Shown here: one piece after another, positions 16,775 through 30,890 of the stretch
Layout of the letters: each line of letters starts with the position of its first letter
How positions within the stretch are numbered: the first letter of the stretch is position 1
Assembly: GCA_964492935.1 (NCBI GenBank)
Contig: CAZBLF010000010.1
Coordinates: 1-35,099, forward strand
DNA: 35,099 nucleotides
Source of the DNA: an uncultured Methanosarcinales archaeon
Lineage (GTDB): Archaea; Nanobdellota; Nanobdellia; Woesearchaeales; JACPBV01
Reading direction: 5' to 3'
The notes under the pieces: generated by a model
Told to the model about the DNA's origin: nothing
Database searches by the model: none
Seen by the model: the letters and a program-made list of their open reading frames with translations, nothing else
Translations under genes and position numbers: made by a program

Positions 16775-16827
16775 GTTTCTGTTATTGAAGTGCAGGTTTA
16801 ATAAACTTTGTAAAGAAAAGAAAAAAA

Positions 16828-17217
16828 GGACCAGCGTAAGCCACCTTCTGTTACCAACCATTTCTAGTCGGCCTTAGCATTGAACTAAGCGGTGTTACAC
16901 CTTGCTCCGGCCAGGTCTCGCCGTTTCATCCATTCTTCCCACAACGTCTTCCGGTTAACTCGGTTCTGTCGCCATTACCTTCACGGATTTCATCCTCGTG
17001 GGAAGGGGTCTCGTTTCGTTGCGGTTGCCGCACATCACTGCACCTCCATCCCGGGAGTGACCATACTTCAATTGTCTTGGAAGCGTTCTGATCGCTTCGC
17101 GCCAGAGAGTTGAAGTGGAGGGTGGACTTTCCTCAGTTCGAACTGCAAAATTGGCTTGACGCCATAAATCCGTAAACGAATTTAACATCGCAGGAACCGT
17201 TAGCTAAGCGCTGATCC
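16828..17217 (-). ncRNA. rnpB: RNase P RNA
   Basis: GAGGAAAGTCCACC and AACAGAAGGTGGCTTA (P4); P1 GGATCAGCG/CGCTGGTCC; P2 CTTAGC/GCTAAG; GGATGAAACGG; GGAGCAAG; followed by poly-T. Confidence 0.97.
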
Positions 17218-17252
17218 TTTAGTGTTCAGTAACTGCTTTTTCTTTAAAAAAG

Positions 17253-26371: not shown

Positions 26372-27211
26372 GTGAGTATTATAAGTTTTTTAGATATGTT
26401 CAAGAAACAGGATAAGGGCGTTACTCTAGATTTACCTCCAGAACCTCCGAAACTGCATGAAGTTACGGGCAGTAAAGGAGGAGAGCTTGATGGTGAATTG
26501 TTGCCTCGACACCTGAAACCACATCATGACGAACATCATGAGCTTCCACCGTTGCCGGATTTAGATGATGATTTGCCGGAATTGGAACCGCTTTCTACTG
26601 GAGATCATGGTTTGAAAACGGTTGATGATTTGAAACTTGATGATTTGCCGCCGTTGCCTTCACCGGAAGATACGCTTGATCATGATCTTCCGGAGATGCC
26701 GAAACCACCTGTTCATCATACTGCTCCACATCACTTTCCTAAACCGTCAGAGCATCATGATCACTTTCCGAAACCACCTGCACATCATGAGGCACCTCAC
26801 TTTCCTAAACCACCTGTGATGCCGCCTATGCCGAAACCACCTGTTCATCCTGATCACATTCCTAATCCTCAGGCGATGCCTCCACCGAAACCTATGAGAA
26901 CTCCTCATAAGGCTATTCAGGAAGGACCTTCGTTTGGTGATTTGTTTCCAGAGGATCATCCTGCGATGCAGGGTGGGGCGCAAGATAAGATTATTCGTGA
27001 TGATGCTGCATTCTTGTCGGTGTTATCGTTCGAGCGTGTTTTAGGAGATATGCAGACGTCGCGCGAAGATTTGAAGCGGATACATCACTATGTTTCCGAT
27101 ATTTCGGGATATGTGGGCGATGAGGATAAGGCATATGCCTCGTTTAGAGAGGATATTATTGATATTCAGCAAAGATTAGCAAAAATGGACAAGGTGTTAT
27201 TTACCGCATAA
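26372..27211 (+). CDS. Pro/His-rich protein with C-terminal 65-aa coiled-coil domain
   Basis: Low-complexity linker with HFPKP/MPKPP repeats; C-terminal domain aligns with the next two ORFs. Confidence 0.85.
   Translation: MSIISFLDMFKKQDKGVTLDLPPEPPKLHEVTGSKGGELDGELLPRHLKPHHDEHHELPPLPDLDDDLPELEPLSTGDHGLKTVDDLKLDDLPPLPSPEDTLDHDLPEMPKPPVHHTAPHHFPKPSEHHDHFPKPPAHHEAPHFPKPPVMPPMPKPPVHPDHIPNPQAMPPPKPMRTPHKAIQEGPSFGDLFPEDHPAMQGGAQDKIIRDDAAFLSVLSFERVLGDMQTSREDLKRIHHYVSDISGYVGDEDKAYASFREDIIDIQQRLAKMDKVLFTA
26696..26893 (+). repeat. Intragenic imperfect repeats (cc(g/t)aaacc; [HM]-FPKP/PKPP units)
   Basis: Six PKP-containing units. Confidence 0.7.
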
Positions 27212-27450: not shown

Positions 27451-27831
27451 ATGGCGAAACAGAAAAAAGATGAAGCATTGTACGTGGGATTGCAGGGTGC
27501 ACCACAGATTAGAAGGGTAGTGTTAACTAATTTAAAGGATACGCTCGAGATGCTGAAGGCGTTCGAGGAGTTTAAGCAGATTAGAAAGCAGAAGCATAGT
27601 TCGTTTACGACGTTAAAAGGCCATGTTGAGGAGATTACGCAGCTTGTTGGTAAGTTGAGAGGTGCGTTGCCAAAAGTTAAACAGTCAACGCTGAAAAAAG
27701 AGGAGCGGCCGGTTAAGATTGCTCCGAAGCCTAAACAAAAAGCTGCTCCTACTCCGATTGCACATTCTGAATTGGACAAAATCGAGAATGAATTAGATAC
27801 GATTGAACATCAATTGAATGCGATGGGGTAA
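27451..27831 (+). CDS. Coiled-coil protein with basic linker and acidic C-terminal helix
   Basis: 126 aa, 2 nt after the previous stop. Confidence 0.85.
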   Translation: MAKQKKDEALYVGLQGAPQIRRVVLTNLKDTLEMLKAFEEFKQIRKQKHSSFTTLKGHVEEITQLVGKLRGALPKVKQSTLKKEERPVKIAPKPKQKAAPTPIAHSELDKIENELDTIEHQLNAMG

Positions 27832-27871
27832 GGTTTTTATACAGATCCTAGTTCTATTTACTTTCACTCTT

Positions 27872-28006
27872 GTGGGGATGCCGGAGTGGTCAAACGGGAT
27901 AGACTCAAATTAGTTAAGTGATGAGCGTCAAGCGATGATTTTGCTATCTACTTGGGCGAAATCTATTTCCTTAGTGGATACGGGGGTTCGAAACCCTCTC
28001 CCCACA
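27872..28006 (+). tRNA. tRNA-Leu(CAA) with 51-nt intron (27910-27960) at position 37/38
   Basis: Acceptor GTGGGGA/TCCCCAC+A; D-arm CCG/CGG; anticodon stem ATAGA/TCTAT, CAA at 27906-27908; long variable arm; GGTTCGAAACC. Confidence 0.93.
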
Positions 28007-28809
28007 TTTTTTCTTTTATAGTTTTTATTTACATAATCAATACACTCGTTGAGTTCACCCTTTTTGTACTCGTTGAGTCTAAATCCTATGTTTTCTCGAA
28101 ACTTTAGTATATTCATTCTATTTCCCAATATTCGAAATCCTTGGCTGTAGGTCTTACTTCCATCCTTTTGTAGAGATTGGAAACTTGGTGAGTCGATTTT
28201 GCTGCACTTCACCGAGAAGCTTTCGGTAAGATGTTTAATCTGCGATATGAAACCAGTTAGCTCTTTCTGATATTTCTTAATTTTAGTCATGTGGAACCGA
28301 GCCTCTCTGATAAAACGATTTCTTTTTAGTTTTATAGTCGCTAGCTCGTCATCAAAAATACCTTGCAAGAATGCTCTTGCTAGTGGTTTGGAGCGCACTA
28401 TCCACTGAGGAACTGAGAATACTTTTTTGGTTTTGTTCCCTATTGGGGCCCCCAGGGCGTAGACATACCTACCAAATAGACAGTCATTCACTTGTAGCAG
28501 GTAGCTGATTCCCTTACTTTTTCTCATCCTTAGAGGTAAACTTGATTCCGGTAGAGAATAGTTCTCCTTTATCAGTTTCTTGAGATTCGAGAGGTCCTCA
28601 ATCGTTCCTGCAAAACGACACGTAAATAGGGCATCAAGATTGCCATCGCCCATCACTTTTGCCACCATATATGCCGAGACGCGAGCAAACTTGGTCTCTT
28701 GCAGTAGGGGTAGCCATCTCCTTTTCTTAAGACGGTCAAATTGCTTTTTTTGTGAAGATTGATACGTTTTCATCACTGCAGACATATCCAAAATTACGTT
28801 ATTTTTCAT
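27928..28809 (-). CDS. Free-standing two-motif LAGLIDADG (DOD-type) endonuclease-like protein
   Basis: YMVAKVMGDG and AFLQGIFDDE motifs; VPQWI; FRENIGF; SD GAGGTG. Confidence 0.85.
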   Translation of the reverse strand: MKNNVILDMSAVMKTYQSSQKKQFDRLKKRRWLPLLQETKFARVSAYMVAKVMGDGNLDALFTCRFAGTIEDLSNLKKLIKENYSLPESSLPLRMRKSKGISYLLQVNDCLFGRYVYALGAPIGNKTKKVFSVPQWIVRSKPLARAFLQGIFDDELATIKLKRNRFIREARFHMTKIKKYQKELTGFISQIKHLTESFSVKCSKIDSPSFQSLQKDGSKTYSQGFRILGNRMNILKFRENIGFRLNEYKKGELNECIDYVNKNYKRKNVGRGFRTPVSTKEIDFAQVDSKIIA

Positions 28810-29021
28810 TTTAATTTCCCCACCTCATCTTGAGATTTCTTTCGGTAGCGTGAAGAAATCTTTGGGTTTGCGGTTTGGGCTGATTAGCGAAACTCTATAA
28901 TTGCTTTTAGTGTCGAGGACCGAAGAGTATTATTTAAGAGTTTTGTGTGTCCTCTCCGCATTTTTTTCTTTTTTTTCTTTTGAGGGATATGTTTATATAT
29001 TGGAGTCTCGATAATAGGGGG

Positions 29022-29900
29022 ATGAAACATAATGTAAAGACGACTTCAATTTTATTGGGGCTCTTTTTTGTTGCTCAGATTATTGGATTATTTGTGATTC
29101 AGAATTATATTGATGTTGATGCTGCTCGAGAGGGCGAATTGGTGTTTAAGGAGCTGCCCTTCGATTTGGAGCGGCCGCCGATTGAGCAAAGTACATCCTT
29201 TCTGTATATTATTGCTGCGATCTTAGTGGGGACGTGTTTAGTATTGTTGTTGATTAAATTTAACAAAACTACTTTATGGAAAGTCTGGTATGGATTAGCG
29301 GTGGTGATTTGTTTGACGATTTCGCTGGCTGCTTTTGTTCCTGCAATTAGTGCGATCGCGGTAAGTGTTGTTGTTGCATTTTACAAAGTTCGACGAAATA
29401 ATCCGATCATTCATAATTTGACTGAGCTTTTTATTTATGGCGGATTGGCAGCTATTTTTGTTCCGGTGATTAATGTGGTGTCGGCGATCTTCTTATTGTT
29501 GGCGATATCGGTGTACGATTATATCGCGGTTAACAAGGTTAAACATATGGTGACCATGGCGAAGTTTCAGACGAAGGCGAAGGTTTTTGCGGGCTTGATG
29601 GTGGGTGGTGTGAAGCCAGGGAAGAAGTTAAAGAAATTGCCAGCTCCTCAAGCAGGCAGGGTGGCAATTCTAGGTGGTGGAGATATTGGTTTTACTCTTT
29701 TATTTTCTGGAGTTATTTTTAAGGGATTGATTTTGAGTTCTCCCGGTACTGCATTTTTGAAGACGCTTTTGATTCCGGTTTTTGCTACGCTTTTTTTGGG
29801 AGCGCTTTTATTTCTTGGAAAGAAGGGAAAGTTTTATCCTGCGATGCCTGCGATCACGGCTGGTTGTTTGCTGGGCTATTTCGCAACGTTGGCTTTCTAA
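29022..29900 (+). CDS. Presenilin/SPP-family (A22) intramembrane aspartyl protease
   Basis: YD (SVYDYIAV), LGGGD, PAMP; multiple TMs; ATG 29022 after TTTATATA. Confidence 0.92.
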   Translation: MKHNVKTTSILLGLFFVAQIIGLFVIQNYIDVDAAREGELVFKELPFDLERPPIEQSTSFLYIIAAILVGTCLVLLLIKFNKTTLWKVWYGLAVVICLTISLAAFVPAISAIAVSVVVAFYKVRRNNPIIHNLTELFIYGGLAAIFVPVINVVSAIFLLLAISVYDYIAVNKVKHMVTMAKFQTKAKVFAGLMVGGVKPGKKLKKLPAPQAGRVAILGGGDIGFTLLFSGVIFKGLILSSPGTAFLKTLLIPVFATLFLGALLFLGKKGKFYPAMPAITAGCLLGYFATLAF

Positions 29901-30721
29901 AGTTGTTGCATGCCTTCAATTAGAGTTCGTTGTCCCTTGTCGACGGAATAAGAAAGTGGATTGATGACCATTCCATCTCTTGCAGCGATGGTTTGGACGC
30001 CGGTTGCTTTATGGATTTCTCTGACTTGATGGAGTGGATCTGCATCCAGAACGCTATTGCCGAAATGGGTTAGAATTGCGAGGCGTGGTTCGACCGCAGT
30101 GATGAGGTCGATTGCATCTTCGATGCTTAGATTATCTTGCGCTGCTTGTTTGTTAACTCCCGGAACATTCATGATGAGGATGTGGATTCCCTTGAGATCT
30201 TTGATGAGATCGTCCGTTAATGAGGTATCTCCGGTGTAGCCGAGAGAAAAGTAGGGTGTATGGAAGGTGAAGCCGATGGACGGGGTGTCGCCGTGTTGAG
30301 TAGTGAGTGCTACAATCTCAATTGCATTTATTCCAATGCGTTGTCTTGGATTGAGTACTAGTGTTTTTTCTAGAAAGTTTTTGGTTCTTGGTTGGAGGAT
30401 TGCTGGAAGTTCTTCCGTACCTTGCACTACGGATTGTTCTCCTACTAATACTCCTTGTTTATCTACTCCATGGACGGTCATCGCATCTATGAGTACATTG
30501 AGATCGTTACAGTGGTGCAGATGACGATGCGTAACAAAAATTCCGTTGGTGCCGCGCACATTGACTCCGCAGAGTGCGGATTGCATGAGTGCATTGGGAC
30601 CGGGATCTATATGAAACTGATTTTCGTCTACTTGTAGTACGAAACCGCCAGAACTTAATCTACCGCGTCCTACAACCTGACTTCCTTGGCCAGTACCTAA
30701 GAAAACAATCGATGATTTCAC
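29897..30721 (-). CDS. Metallo-beta-lactamase-fold hydrolase
   Basis: FLGTG, IDPGP, THRHLHH, YTGDT, LTHFG; probable start GTG 30721. Confidence 0.88.
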   Translation of the reverse strand: MKSSIVFLGTGQGSQVVGRGRLSSGGFVLQVDENQFHIDPGPNALMQSALCGVNVRGTNGIFVTHRHLHHCNDLNVLIDAMTVHGVDKQGVLVGEQSVVQGTEELPAILQPRTKNFLEKTLVLNPRQRIGINAIEIVALTTQHGDTPSIGFTFHTPYFSLGYTGDTSLTDDLIKDLKGIHILIMNVPGVNKQAAQDNLSIEDAIDLITAVEPRLAILTHFGNSVLDADPLHQVREIHKATGVQTIAARDGMVINPLSYSVDKGQRTLIEGMQQL

Positions 30722-30890
30722 GTTTACCCCCCACGAGTAGGAAGCCGAAGCGGTTAATAAATATATCGATACTAGAAAAATCGTTTTTGAGATTATGAAT
30801 GTGTTTTGATTGTTGAAGAATATCGCTTCTTTCCTTTCCAGTTGTGAAAAGTGCAAATTTGACGTAATTAGGCGAAACCTTTTTAAAGAA

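Follow-up and report, generated by a model that had tools for sequence, protein, structure and literature searches.

This report concerns a two-gene unit in the genome of an uncultured archaeon of the order Woesearchaeales, in which a gene for a LAGLIDADG homing-type endonuclease is packed tail to tail against a gene for tRNA-Leu(CAA). The stretch of DNA that was analysed, hereafter the window, comprises positions 1 to 35,099 of contig CAZBLF010000010.1 (assembly GCA_964492935.1), and plus and minus refer to its forward strand. The resident tRNA gene occupies 27872-28006 (+) and carries an anticodon-loop intron of 51 nucleotides (nt) at about 27908-27958 (+). The endonuclease is encoded by an open reading frame (ORF) of 293 amino acids at 27928-28809 (-). 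The region upstream of the ORF, 28810-28949 (-), has no counterpart at the empty site of a congener and forms the far end of the inserted unit. Directly beyond it, at 28950-28975 (+), lies a detached tRNA 3' end.

The arrangement was compared with contigs from four DNA metagenome runs on marine samples. Independent contigs bridge the junction between tRNA and ORF (27811-28143), run from upstream of the ORF across the detached tRNA end (28836-29240) and span that end together with the ORF start (28608-29160), each with 0-1 differences from the window. Since these junction-spanning contigs come from independent runs, the arrangement is not an assembly artefact. Two apparent skips, at 27898/27903-27979, proved to be tRNAs of other organisms.

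When introns are allowed, ARAGORN reports a single tRNA in the window, at [27871,28007], with anticodon caa and a 51-nt intron at position 37/38. The Rfam tRNA model, applied to 27872-28006, scores 40.7 bits (gathering score 29; expectation value (E) 1.7e-07) with a 53-nt insert, and a tRNA-Leu model (R2) scores 77.3 bits. Because of the intron, the gene is detected neither by ARAGORN with default settings nor by the Rfam gathering scan of the window. It is the only tRNA-Leu(CAA) copy detected in the genome (labelled G000 here), which is 84.8% complete; the congener of the same genus used for comparison (G406) is 80% complete.

The intron borders are ambiguous by 1-2 nt owing to a run of A. 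By-eye comparison identifies two boxes in the intron, GUGAUGAG and CGAUGAU (27918-27940, +), which flank a short hairpin and are common to CAA introns elsewhere. Their layout resembles a C-box/K-turn-type element and might represent a guide or a binding site for a protein; the window copy shows no CUGA D box. Minimum free energy folding of the unspliced precursor produced neither a cloverleaf nor a clean bulge-helix-bulge, which leaves the predicted splice motif without folding support.

The ORF product begins with MKNNVILD and ends with VGRGFRTPVSTKEIDFAQVDSKIIA, and a Shine-Dalgarno-like GAGGTGGGG is located at 28818-28826 (-), 8 nt ahead of the ATG. The preliminary description of this DNA had reported that the endonuclease ORF overlaps the tRNA gene by 79 nt and takes its TGA stop codon from the intron, and we find the same: the overlap extends over 27928-28006, and the TGA at 27928-27930 falls inside the intron. 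The last 25 codons (269-293, VGRGFRTPVSTKEIDFAQVDSKIIA, 27931-28005, -) read antisense to the T arm, the variable arm, the 3' strand of the anticodon stem and part of the intron. The last nucleotide of codon 268 is at 28006, the exact 3' end of the tRNA, and residues 1-268 form the folded core of the structure model described below; in nine of ten rows of structural matches from the ESM Atlas the match spans residues 1-265 up to 277. In relatives the tail is likewise antisense tRNA in the same frame (GIRTPVSTKEMDF, GFEPR, IRTRESTKEADLS), with a length that ranges from none to about 30 residues. As the ORF and the tRNA gene meet tail to tail, the frame of the ORF continues antisense until the first stop, which happens here to lie in the intron. 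From the sequences and the model, we read the tail and its stop as incidental read-through, a by-product of tight packing, because the tail is modelled as disordered and varies in length among relatives. That 25 codons opposite a tRNA remain open has a chance of about 0.3 by (61/64)^25 and is not improbable alone; what goes beyond chance is the family-wide linkage to tRNA-Leu rather than the overlap itself.

The ORF is not an intein, and the absence of intein termini noted in the preliminary description is upheld. It starts M-K-N-N and stands alone between the tRNA and non-coding DNA, and upstream of its ATG the open frame continues for just five codons, with no host protein into which it could be inserted in frame. 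It is also the only ORF in the inserted stretch, 28007-28949. An earlier remark that the gene looks less G/T-skewed than its neighbours is confirmed in part, in that the ORF region departs from its surroundings in GC skew: plus-strand values are -0.06 to -0.08 over 28000-28900, whereas most windows to either side of it have +0.10 to +0.36, and these positive-skew neighbours include a minus-strand gene (29897-30856).

An AlphaFold2 model from the family alignment, which was assembled from 22 homologues of the 293-residue protein, has a mean predicted local distance difference test (pLDDT) score of 87.7 and a predicted template modelling (TM) score of 0.85; residues 269-293 fall below a pLDDT of 50. 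In Foldseek searches, the best PDB matches are I-Tsp061I (2e-07), PI-SceI, I-AniI and PI-PfuI (E 2e-07 to 1.3e-06), followed by I-DmoI chains from E 4.4e-06, and the LAGLIDADG endonucleases match at a Foldseek probability of 1.00. The LAGLIDADG maturase bI3 and WhiA are also among the matches. The ESM Atlas returns LAGLIDADG_3 / DOD clusters of Nanobdellota and endonuclease parts of inteins at TM scores of 0.84-0.85, including the intein part of RtcB (0.84). Model, Foldseek and Atlas thus agree on the pseudo-dimeric alpha-beta-beta-alpha-beta-beta-alpha LAGLIDADG fold. By sequence the connection is more distant: in NCBIfam the only matches are to the endonuclease region of models for intein-containing proteins, RtcB (9.7e-20) and RFC, far below cut-offs, and a PDB sequence search with the family profile found nothing at E<=0.01, its only hit being a chance match to ribosomal protein S3 (E 0.36).

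In LAGLIDADG proteins, the catalytic residues lie at the ends of two long helices. Two acidic motifs, G54-D55-G56 (within VMGDGNL) and D154-E155 (within FDDEL), are invariant in the 23 sequences of the family, and in the model they sit at the C-terminal ends of helices 40-53 and 141-155. The fold and the conserved motifs therefore bear out the preliminary reading of a free-standing LAGLIDADG endonuclease gene, for which a model of exactly these residues had been proposed as a check. On sequence and model, the ORF is a two-motif enzyme of the homing type, whose activity and target site we infer. Some family members (P0015, P0016; L041, L051, L055-L058) have in addition a C-terminal extension of the resolvase-type helix-turn-helix kind, and Pfam finds HTH_7 / HTH_38 in 2 of the 23.

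Of the 401 genomes of the order, 13 contain close members (E below 1e-60), at 15 places in all; weaker matches in these genomes are mostly intein domains within frames of 680-1000 residues. Across genome contigs, in which loci were found with an alignment query after a single-protein query had returned none, the family is present in metagenome-assembled genomes of Woesearchaeota, Nanoarchaeota and Aenigmatarchaeota. The genome studied here has a second copy with 49% identity, on its contig C1 at 63585-64382, which is convergent with an intron-less tRNA-Leu(TAG) gene 5 nt away.

This association with tRNA-Leu holds across the family. Neighbouring tRNA-Leu genes were sought with a profile built from nine tRNA-Leu genes, and one directly adjoins the ORF in 27 of 28 genome loci (the two of this genome plus L035-L060) and in 16 of 18 further distinct metagenome loci, 43 of 46 in total. 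The three loci lacking one (L055, L121, L131) all end at a contig edge on the upstream side. The linked genes have anticodons that include CAA, TAG and TAA, and, with the ORF taken as the plus strand, they are found convergent with it (13 loci), upstream on the same strand (21), downstream on the same strand (7) or divergent (2). As a control, the seven non-Leu tRNAs in the family loci are not matched by the Leu profile. Among 19 loci of remoter LAGLIDADG hits (one of which, L022, belongs to a genome flagged unpublished), a strong tRNA-Leu match appears at one, that of the nearest free-standing relative (L018), and a very weak one (E 0.46) at a second. With four clear tRNA-Leu genes in 1.15 Mb, we calculate that chance adjacency would be well under 1%.

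Several features of the family are signs of a selfish element: its patchy occurrence, its broken copies, its non-sister paralogues and the departure in skew. At least 6 of the 46 copies have premature stops. In the tree, the two copies of this genome are not sisters; the C1 copy groups, at 87/77 support, with a copy from a different genome that is linked to a CAA gene, and both belong to a clade supported at 99/98. Arrangement and anticodon cluster weakly on the nuclease tree (8 changes versus a shuffled mean of 11.1), in which many forks remain open.

Some linked loci have further peculiarities in or near the tRNA gene. Spacers between an upstream tRNA and the ORF contain hairpins or an inverted copy of tRNA sequence (L051 2393-2407, L052 2311-2320, L060 2411-2419, and also L043, L044 and L047), the inverted copy, of up to 15 nt, corresponding to the 3' strand of the anticodon stem plus the start of the variable arm. 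In the linked tRNA-Leu(TAA) genes of L040, L043, L045, L051 and L060, the 5' acceptor strand is discontinuous with the D arm, and in L045 it lies about 20 nt upstream of it; this suggests an intron directly after the acceptor stem or some other disruption. Elsewhere in the same genome, a distant LAGLIDADG ORF (contig C16, 9424-10272, -; open over 283 codons and matching the family profile at E 9e-08) enters the 5' end of a tRNA-Gln(UUG) gene with a 26-nt D-loop insert (C16:9335-9430, -; locus L004), and tRNA-docked nuclease genes may therefore not be restricted to tRNA-Leu.

Maturases and WhiA are cases in which a LAGLIDADG fold was recruited to another role, and a linkage as tight as 43 of 46 loci to one tRNA family could mean that the protein has been domesticated to serve tRNA-Leu, as a DNA-binding regulator or an RNA-binding, maturase-like factor kept adjacent by selection; the presence of bI3 and WhiA among the fold matches would fit such a role. 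We regard this as quite improbable. A protein in the service of tRNA-Leu sits poorly with close members in just 13 of 401 genomes and none in the contigs of the congener, with pseudogenised copies, with four orientations relative to the tRNA, with invariant acidic residues at the catalytic positions and with the displaced tRNA ends described next, which point to insertion events. The preliminary description had named a catalytically dead, vertically conserved WhiA-like protein as the identity that would count against a nuclease. Both catalytic-position acids are conserved, and the protein is therefore unlike one of that kind; its patchy spread and absence from the congener agree with this.

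Comparison with the congener, whose contigs contain no family member, bears on how the unit arose. Its tRNA-Leu(CAA) locus shares synteny with the window, the genes on either side being 79-81% identical; the downstream gene lies about 200 nt past the tRNA, with no ORF in between. The last 11 nt of its tRNA plus the T-run that follows match window positions 28950-28975, on the far side of the ORF, at 25 of 26 nt. This orphan remnant of the ancestral tRNA-Leu(CAA) consists of the last 3 nt of the T-stem, the 3' acceptor strand and the discriminator (TCCTCTCCGCA, 28950-28960), followed by a T-run terminator at 28961-28975. The resident tRNA differs from that of the congener in its acceptor stem (GTGGGGA/TCCCCAC versus GCGGAGA/TCTCCGC), and also in variable arm, T-loop and T-stem. 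The second locus of this genome repeats the picture. Positions 63506-63523 of contig C1 equal the last 15 nt plus TTT of the congener's tRNA-Leu(TAG) (18/18), and the flank 5' of the tRNA is near-identical to the congener's until a few nt before position +1; the resident TAG tRNA differs from the congener's in the acceptor, the D arm, two anticodon-stem pairs and the T-loop. Presence and absence at two fixed sites, together with the patchy spread, support the earlier suggestion of mobility: the ORF behaves as a mobile insertion, missing from both syntenic loci of the congener.

Comparable remnants lie on the far side of the ORF in five further loci (L036, L038, L044, L050, L123). They start in the T-loop or the 3' strand of the T-stem, end at the discriminator, usually with a T-run behind it, and occur in convergent and tRNA-upstream arrangements. 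They were located by pattern and by eye, self-BLAST having produced mostly A/T-rich noise, and diverged remnants may therefore be missed. We also considered that the orphan end might be the 3' exon of a T-loop intron of about 1 kb that holds the ORF. This was rejected, since the proximal 3' end is fully paired to the 5' strand and has a T-run of its own behind it. A separate observation concerns the congener: at L062 (G406:C79, 1320-1515), a palindromic insert of about 190 nt lies between the tRNA and the next gene. It is a long inverted repeat with a G+C-rich centre, which could be a miniature inverted-repeat transposable element or a structured RNA, and it is absent from the window.

Because the remnants match the congener and the resident tRNAs differ from it, we conclude that a replacement cassette of tRNA and nuclease overwrote the native gene. 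We consider it probable that this is a mobile cassette of about 1.0-1.1 kb, made up of a tRNA-Leu gene and a homing endonuclease gene, which leaves the native 3' end behind. On comparison with the congener's sequence, the share of the tRNA that came with it is at least the 3' part and most simply the whole gene with its intron (for TAG, the whole gene). The resident tRNA-Leu(CAA), whose acceptor and variable arm (CCTTAGTGG) are unlike those of the congener, is taken to be the incoming allele. Mechanistically, the enzyme would cut cassette-free tRNA-Leu genes in the region from T-loop and T-stem to the acceptor, and the break would be repaired from a cassette-bearing copy, replacing the native tRNA by a functional but divergent one. 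The native 3' end would remain on the far side of the ORF. Neither the divergent tRNA of the cassette nor the shortened remnant would any longer be a substrate, and sequence shared among tRNA-Leu genes would allow the element to hop between isoacceptor genes.

Several points weigh against this account. Pfam gives the window protein no match at E<=1, and only 6 of the 23 family members reach LAGLIDADG_3, with a best E of 6.3e-05. Remnants are recognisable in only 7 of the 43 linked loci, and in none of the ORF-upstream (7) or divergent (2) ones, whose origin may differ. Both empty sites come from one genome pair (G000/G406), no contig of the four metagenome runs joins across the ORF, and no empty allele was seen among them in this population. 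The two changes seen in the 5' acceptor strand at the CAA locus may have arisen afterwards as compensatory mutations, and not by co-conversion. Cleavage, cut site and target are what we infer; the remnant start, from which alone a T-loop target is deduced, varies from about nt 54 to nt 62. Finally, the resident tRNAs retain ordinary T-loops, and immunity through divergence is an assumption.

The cassette could also have moved by another route, with the LAGLIDADG gene as a passenger or accessory: tRNA-Leu genes might undergo homologous recombination or gene conversion once DNA has been taken up, or a recombinase might act in trans, as in integrative elements that target tRNA genes. Integrase insertion into tRNA genes classically leaves a displaced tRNA 3' end, and a Caldiarchaeum element of 1.8 kb, in the portion of PMC3293823 that deals with it, combines a recombinase with a tRNA fragment and an intron-richer tRNA. 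We hold this route to be unlikely: the inserted unit has no ORF besides the LAGLIDADG gene, the same single-gene unit recurs at at least 43 loci, the remnant is no exact repeat of the resident end, and the variable junction does not suit a fixed attachment (att) core. As a candidate in its own right, a tRNA-targeting integrative element was rejected, since 28007-28949 contains no integrase or recombinase and there are no identical att repeats.

The preliminary description had offered a different partner for the nuclease, namely the anticodon-loop intron. In collaborative homing, of which F-CphI/psbA and MobE/nrdB are examples, the nuclease would here cut intron-less tRNA-Leu(CAA) genes at the anticodon loop, the adjacent ORF-less intron would protect against it, and both would spread together. 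The nuclease gene does adjoin an intron-bearing tRNA, introns occur in 24 of 27 linked tRNA-Leu genes, and the window intron, which cannot be aligned to that of the congener by BLAST, probably came with the cassette. But the co-occurrence of intron and ORF at tRNA-Leu(CAA), proposed earlier as the check, breaks down in both directions: the congener has a homologous-type intron at the same 37/38 site without the ORF, and the ORF lies beside intron-less tRNA-Leu genes on contig C1 of this genome (L006) and at L035 and L046. Among the CAA genes that were read, 9 of 11 unlinked and 3 of 3 ORF-linked ones have the 37/38 intron with its shared motif (UUGAGUGAUGAG ... CGAUGA), and unlinked tRNA-Leu genes in general are mostly intron-bearing too (18 of 23 strong model matches exceed 90 nt). 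The junctions, moreover, lie in the T-loop and T-stem, away from the anticodon loop. With each partner found without the other, and the junction in the T arm, we find this proposal unsupported and very improbable. Judged from its distribution, the CAA intron is a conserved feature of tRNA-Leu(CAA), independent of the nuclease and not its partner. The incoming tRNA nonetheless seems to have carried its own variant of the intron, and it is a possibility that homing moves introns by co-conversion.

Short introns of another kind occur in or at the start of the T-loop, at the position of the cassette junction, in L038, L107 (G035), L076 (G237), L110 and L037 (G328). The genes affected are TAG (linked) and TAA in G035, CAA in G237, and CAA and TAG in G328, all of which are genomes that carry the family. 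Several of these introns end ...GAGAAAG or ...GAGGAAG directly before the 3' strand of the T-stem. The tRNA-Leu genes of G000 and G406 have no T-loop intron, and G406 is the sole family-free genome examined.

A broader proposal, which we put forward only tentatively and think rather doubtful, is that nuclease attack on the tRNA-Leu T arm drives the gain and spread of tRNA introns in DPANN archaea. This might happen by two routes: T-loop introns would split the recognition site and so confer immunity, and cassette-borne tRNAs would bring introns to new genomes by co-conversion. If true, this would provide a testable mechanism for the build-up of introns at odd positions in archaeal tRNA genes.

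Other features of the window and the genome were recorded along the way. An archaeal ribonuclease P RNA lies at 16827-17218 (-) of the window; it scores 117.3 bits over the full model length and has large insertions of 55 and 60 nt in two helices. Together with the affiliation of the relatives, this RNA places the organism among the DPANN archaea. A 279-residue ORF at 26372-27211 (+) is rich in proline, histidine and aspartate and contains repeated HHxxPHFPKPP-like units. ARAGORN called tRNA-Glu and tRNA-Leu(AAG) genes with introns of 1063 and 1316 nt at C4:3226-4386 and C18:10423-11830 of the same genome; with no family ORF inside and no match by model R2, these calls are probably false.

The unit shows how an essential gene can be invaded harmlessly, because the element brings a working copy of the tRNA with it. 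It also points to natural enzymes with tRNA-gene sequences as presumed targets, and the two pairs of filled and empty alleles are ready substrates for a cleavage assay. More widely, it places a mobile agent in the debate on archaeal tRNA introns, fragments and split tRNAs, in which the models, as represented in part of PMC3293823, are mostly integrase-based. In the full-text literature searched, whose coverage leaves subscription journals largely outside, we found no account of any LAGLIDADG family associated with archaeal tRNA genes, nor of a chromosomal archaeal family that is specific to one tRNA identity and supplies a replacement tRNA. The window itself contributes two filled and empty allele pairs in congeners, places the junction in the T arm and shows the CAA intron to be independent of the nuclease.

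Homing endonucleases are known within introns and inteins, and as free-standing genes in phages and organelles. The archaeal enzymes I-Tsp061I and I-DmoI from rRNA introns, and the endonucleases of the PI-PfuI, RtcB and RFC inteins, have the same fold as our ORF, and the intein endonuclease regions are its nearest relatives in sequence (by the NCBIfam match above). Unlike all of these, the gene described here lies outside any intron or intein, alone beside its presumed target. Collaborative homing, the pairing of a free-standing nuclease with an ORF-less intron that is mentioned in PMC2988022, shares with the present case a free-standing nuclease gene beside an intron-bearing gene; it differs in that our intron belongs to the protein-spliced tRNA introns of archaea and is independent of the nuclease, and in that the junction lies in the T arm. 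The same source, in its account of 'intronless homing', presents phage T4 SegB as a free-standing GIY-YIG nuclease among tRNA genes that targets a tRNA intergenic region. The likeness to SegB and the other Seg and Mob enzymes is that of a free-standing nuclease gene near tRNA genes, and the spread of SegB also drags the tRNA region along by co-conversion; in contrast to SegB as described there, our family is of the LAGLIDADG type, resides in a cellular archaeal chromosome, is tied to Leu identity and leaves a displaced tRNA end.

tRNA-targeting elements, and the Caldiarchaeum model of tRNA-Thr disruption introduced above (PMC3293823, in the part concerned), resemble the present unit in that a tRNA gene is invaded by mobile DNA that provides a functional copy and leaves a fragment behind, with intron-richer alleles as a further similarity. 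Here, by contrast with what is outlined there, no integrase or recombinase is involved, and the unit consists of a single nuclease gene of about 0.9 kb. Alongside SegB, the closest known parallel is provided by the fungal mitochondrial mORFs of Allomyces macrogynus atp6 and Glomus sp. atp6, atp9, cox2 and nad3 (Beaudet et al. 2013, PMC3630166). In the sections of that paper that describe them, an incoming LAGLIDADG or GIY-YIG ORF is accompanied by a foreign 3' end for the gene, and the native one, which is identical to the allele of a sister species, persists downstream. The window likewise has a nuclease ORF, a replacement 3' end and a displaced native end that matches the relative's allele (25/26 here and 18/18 at the second locus), and five further loci retain remnants. 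As far as those sections go, the differences are that the host is a chromosomal archaeal tRNA gene instead of a mitochondrial protein gene, that the nuclease gene occurs in four orientations and is not in frame with its host, and that the replaced tract seems to span the whole tRNA.

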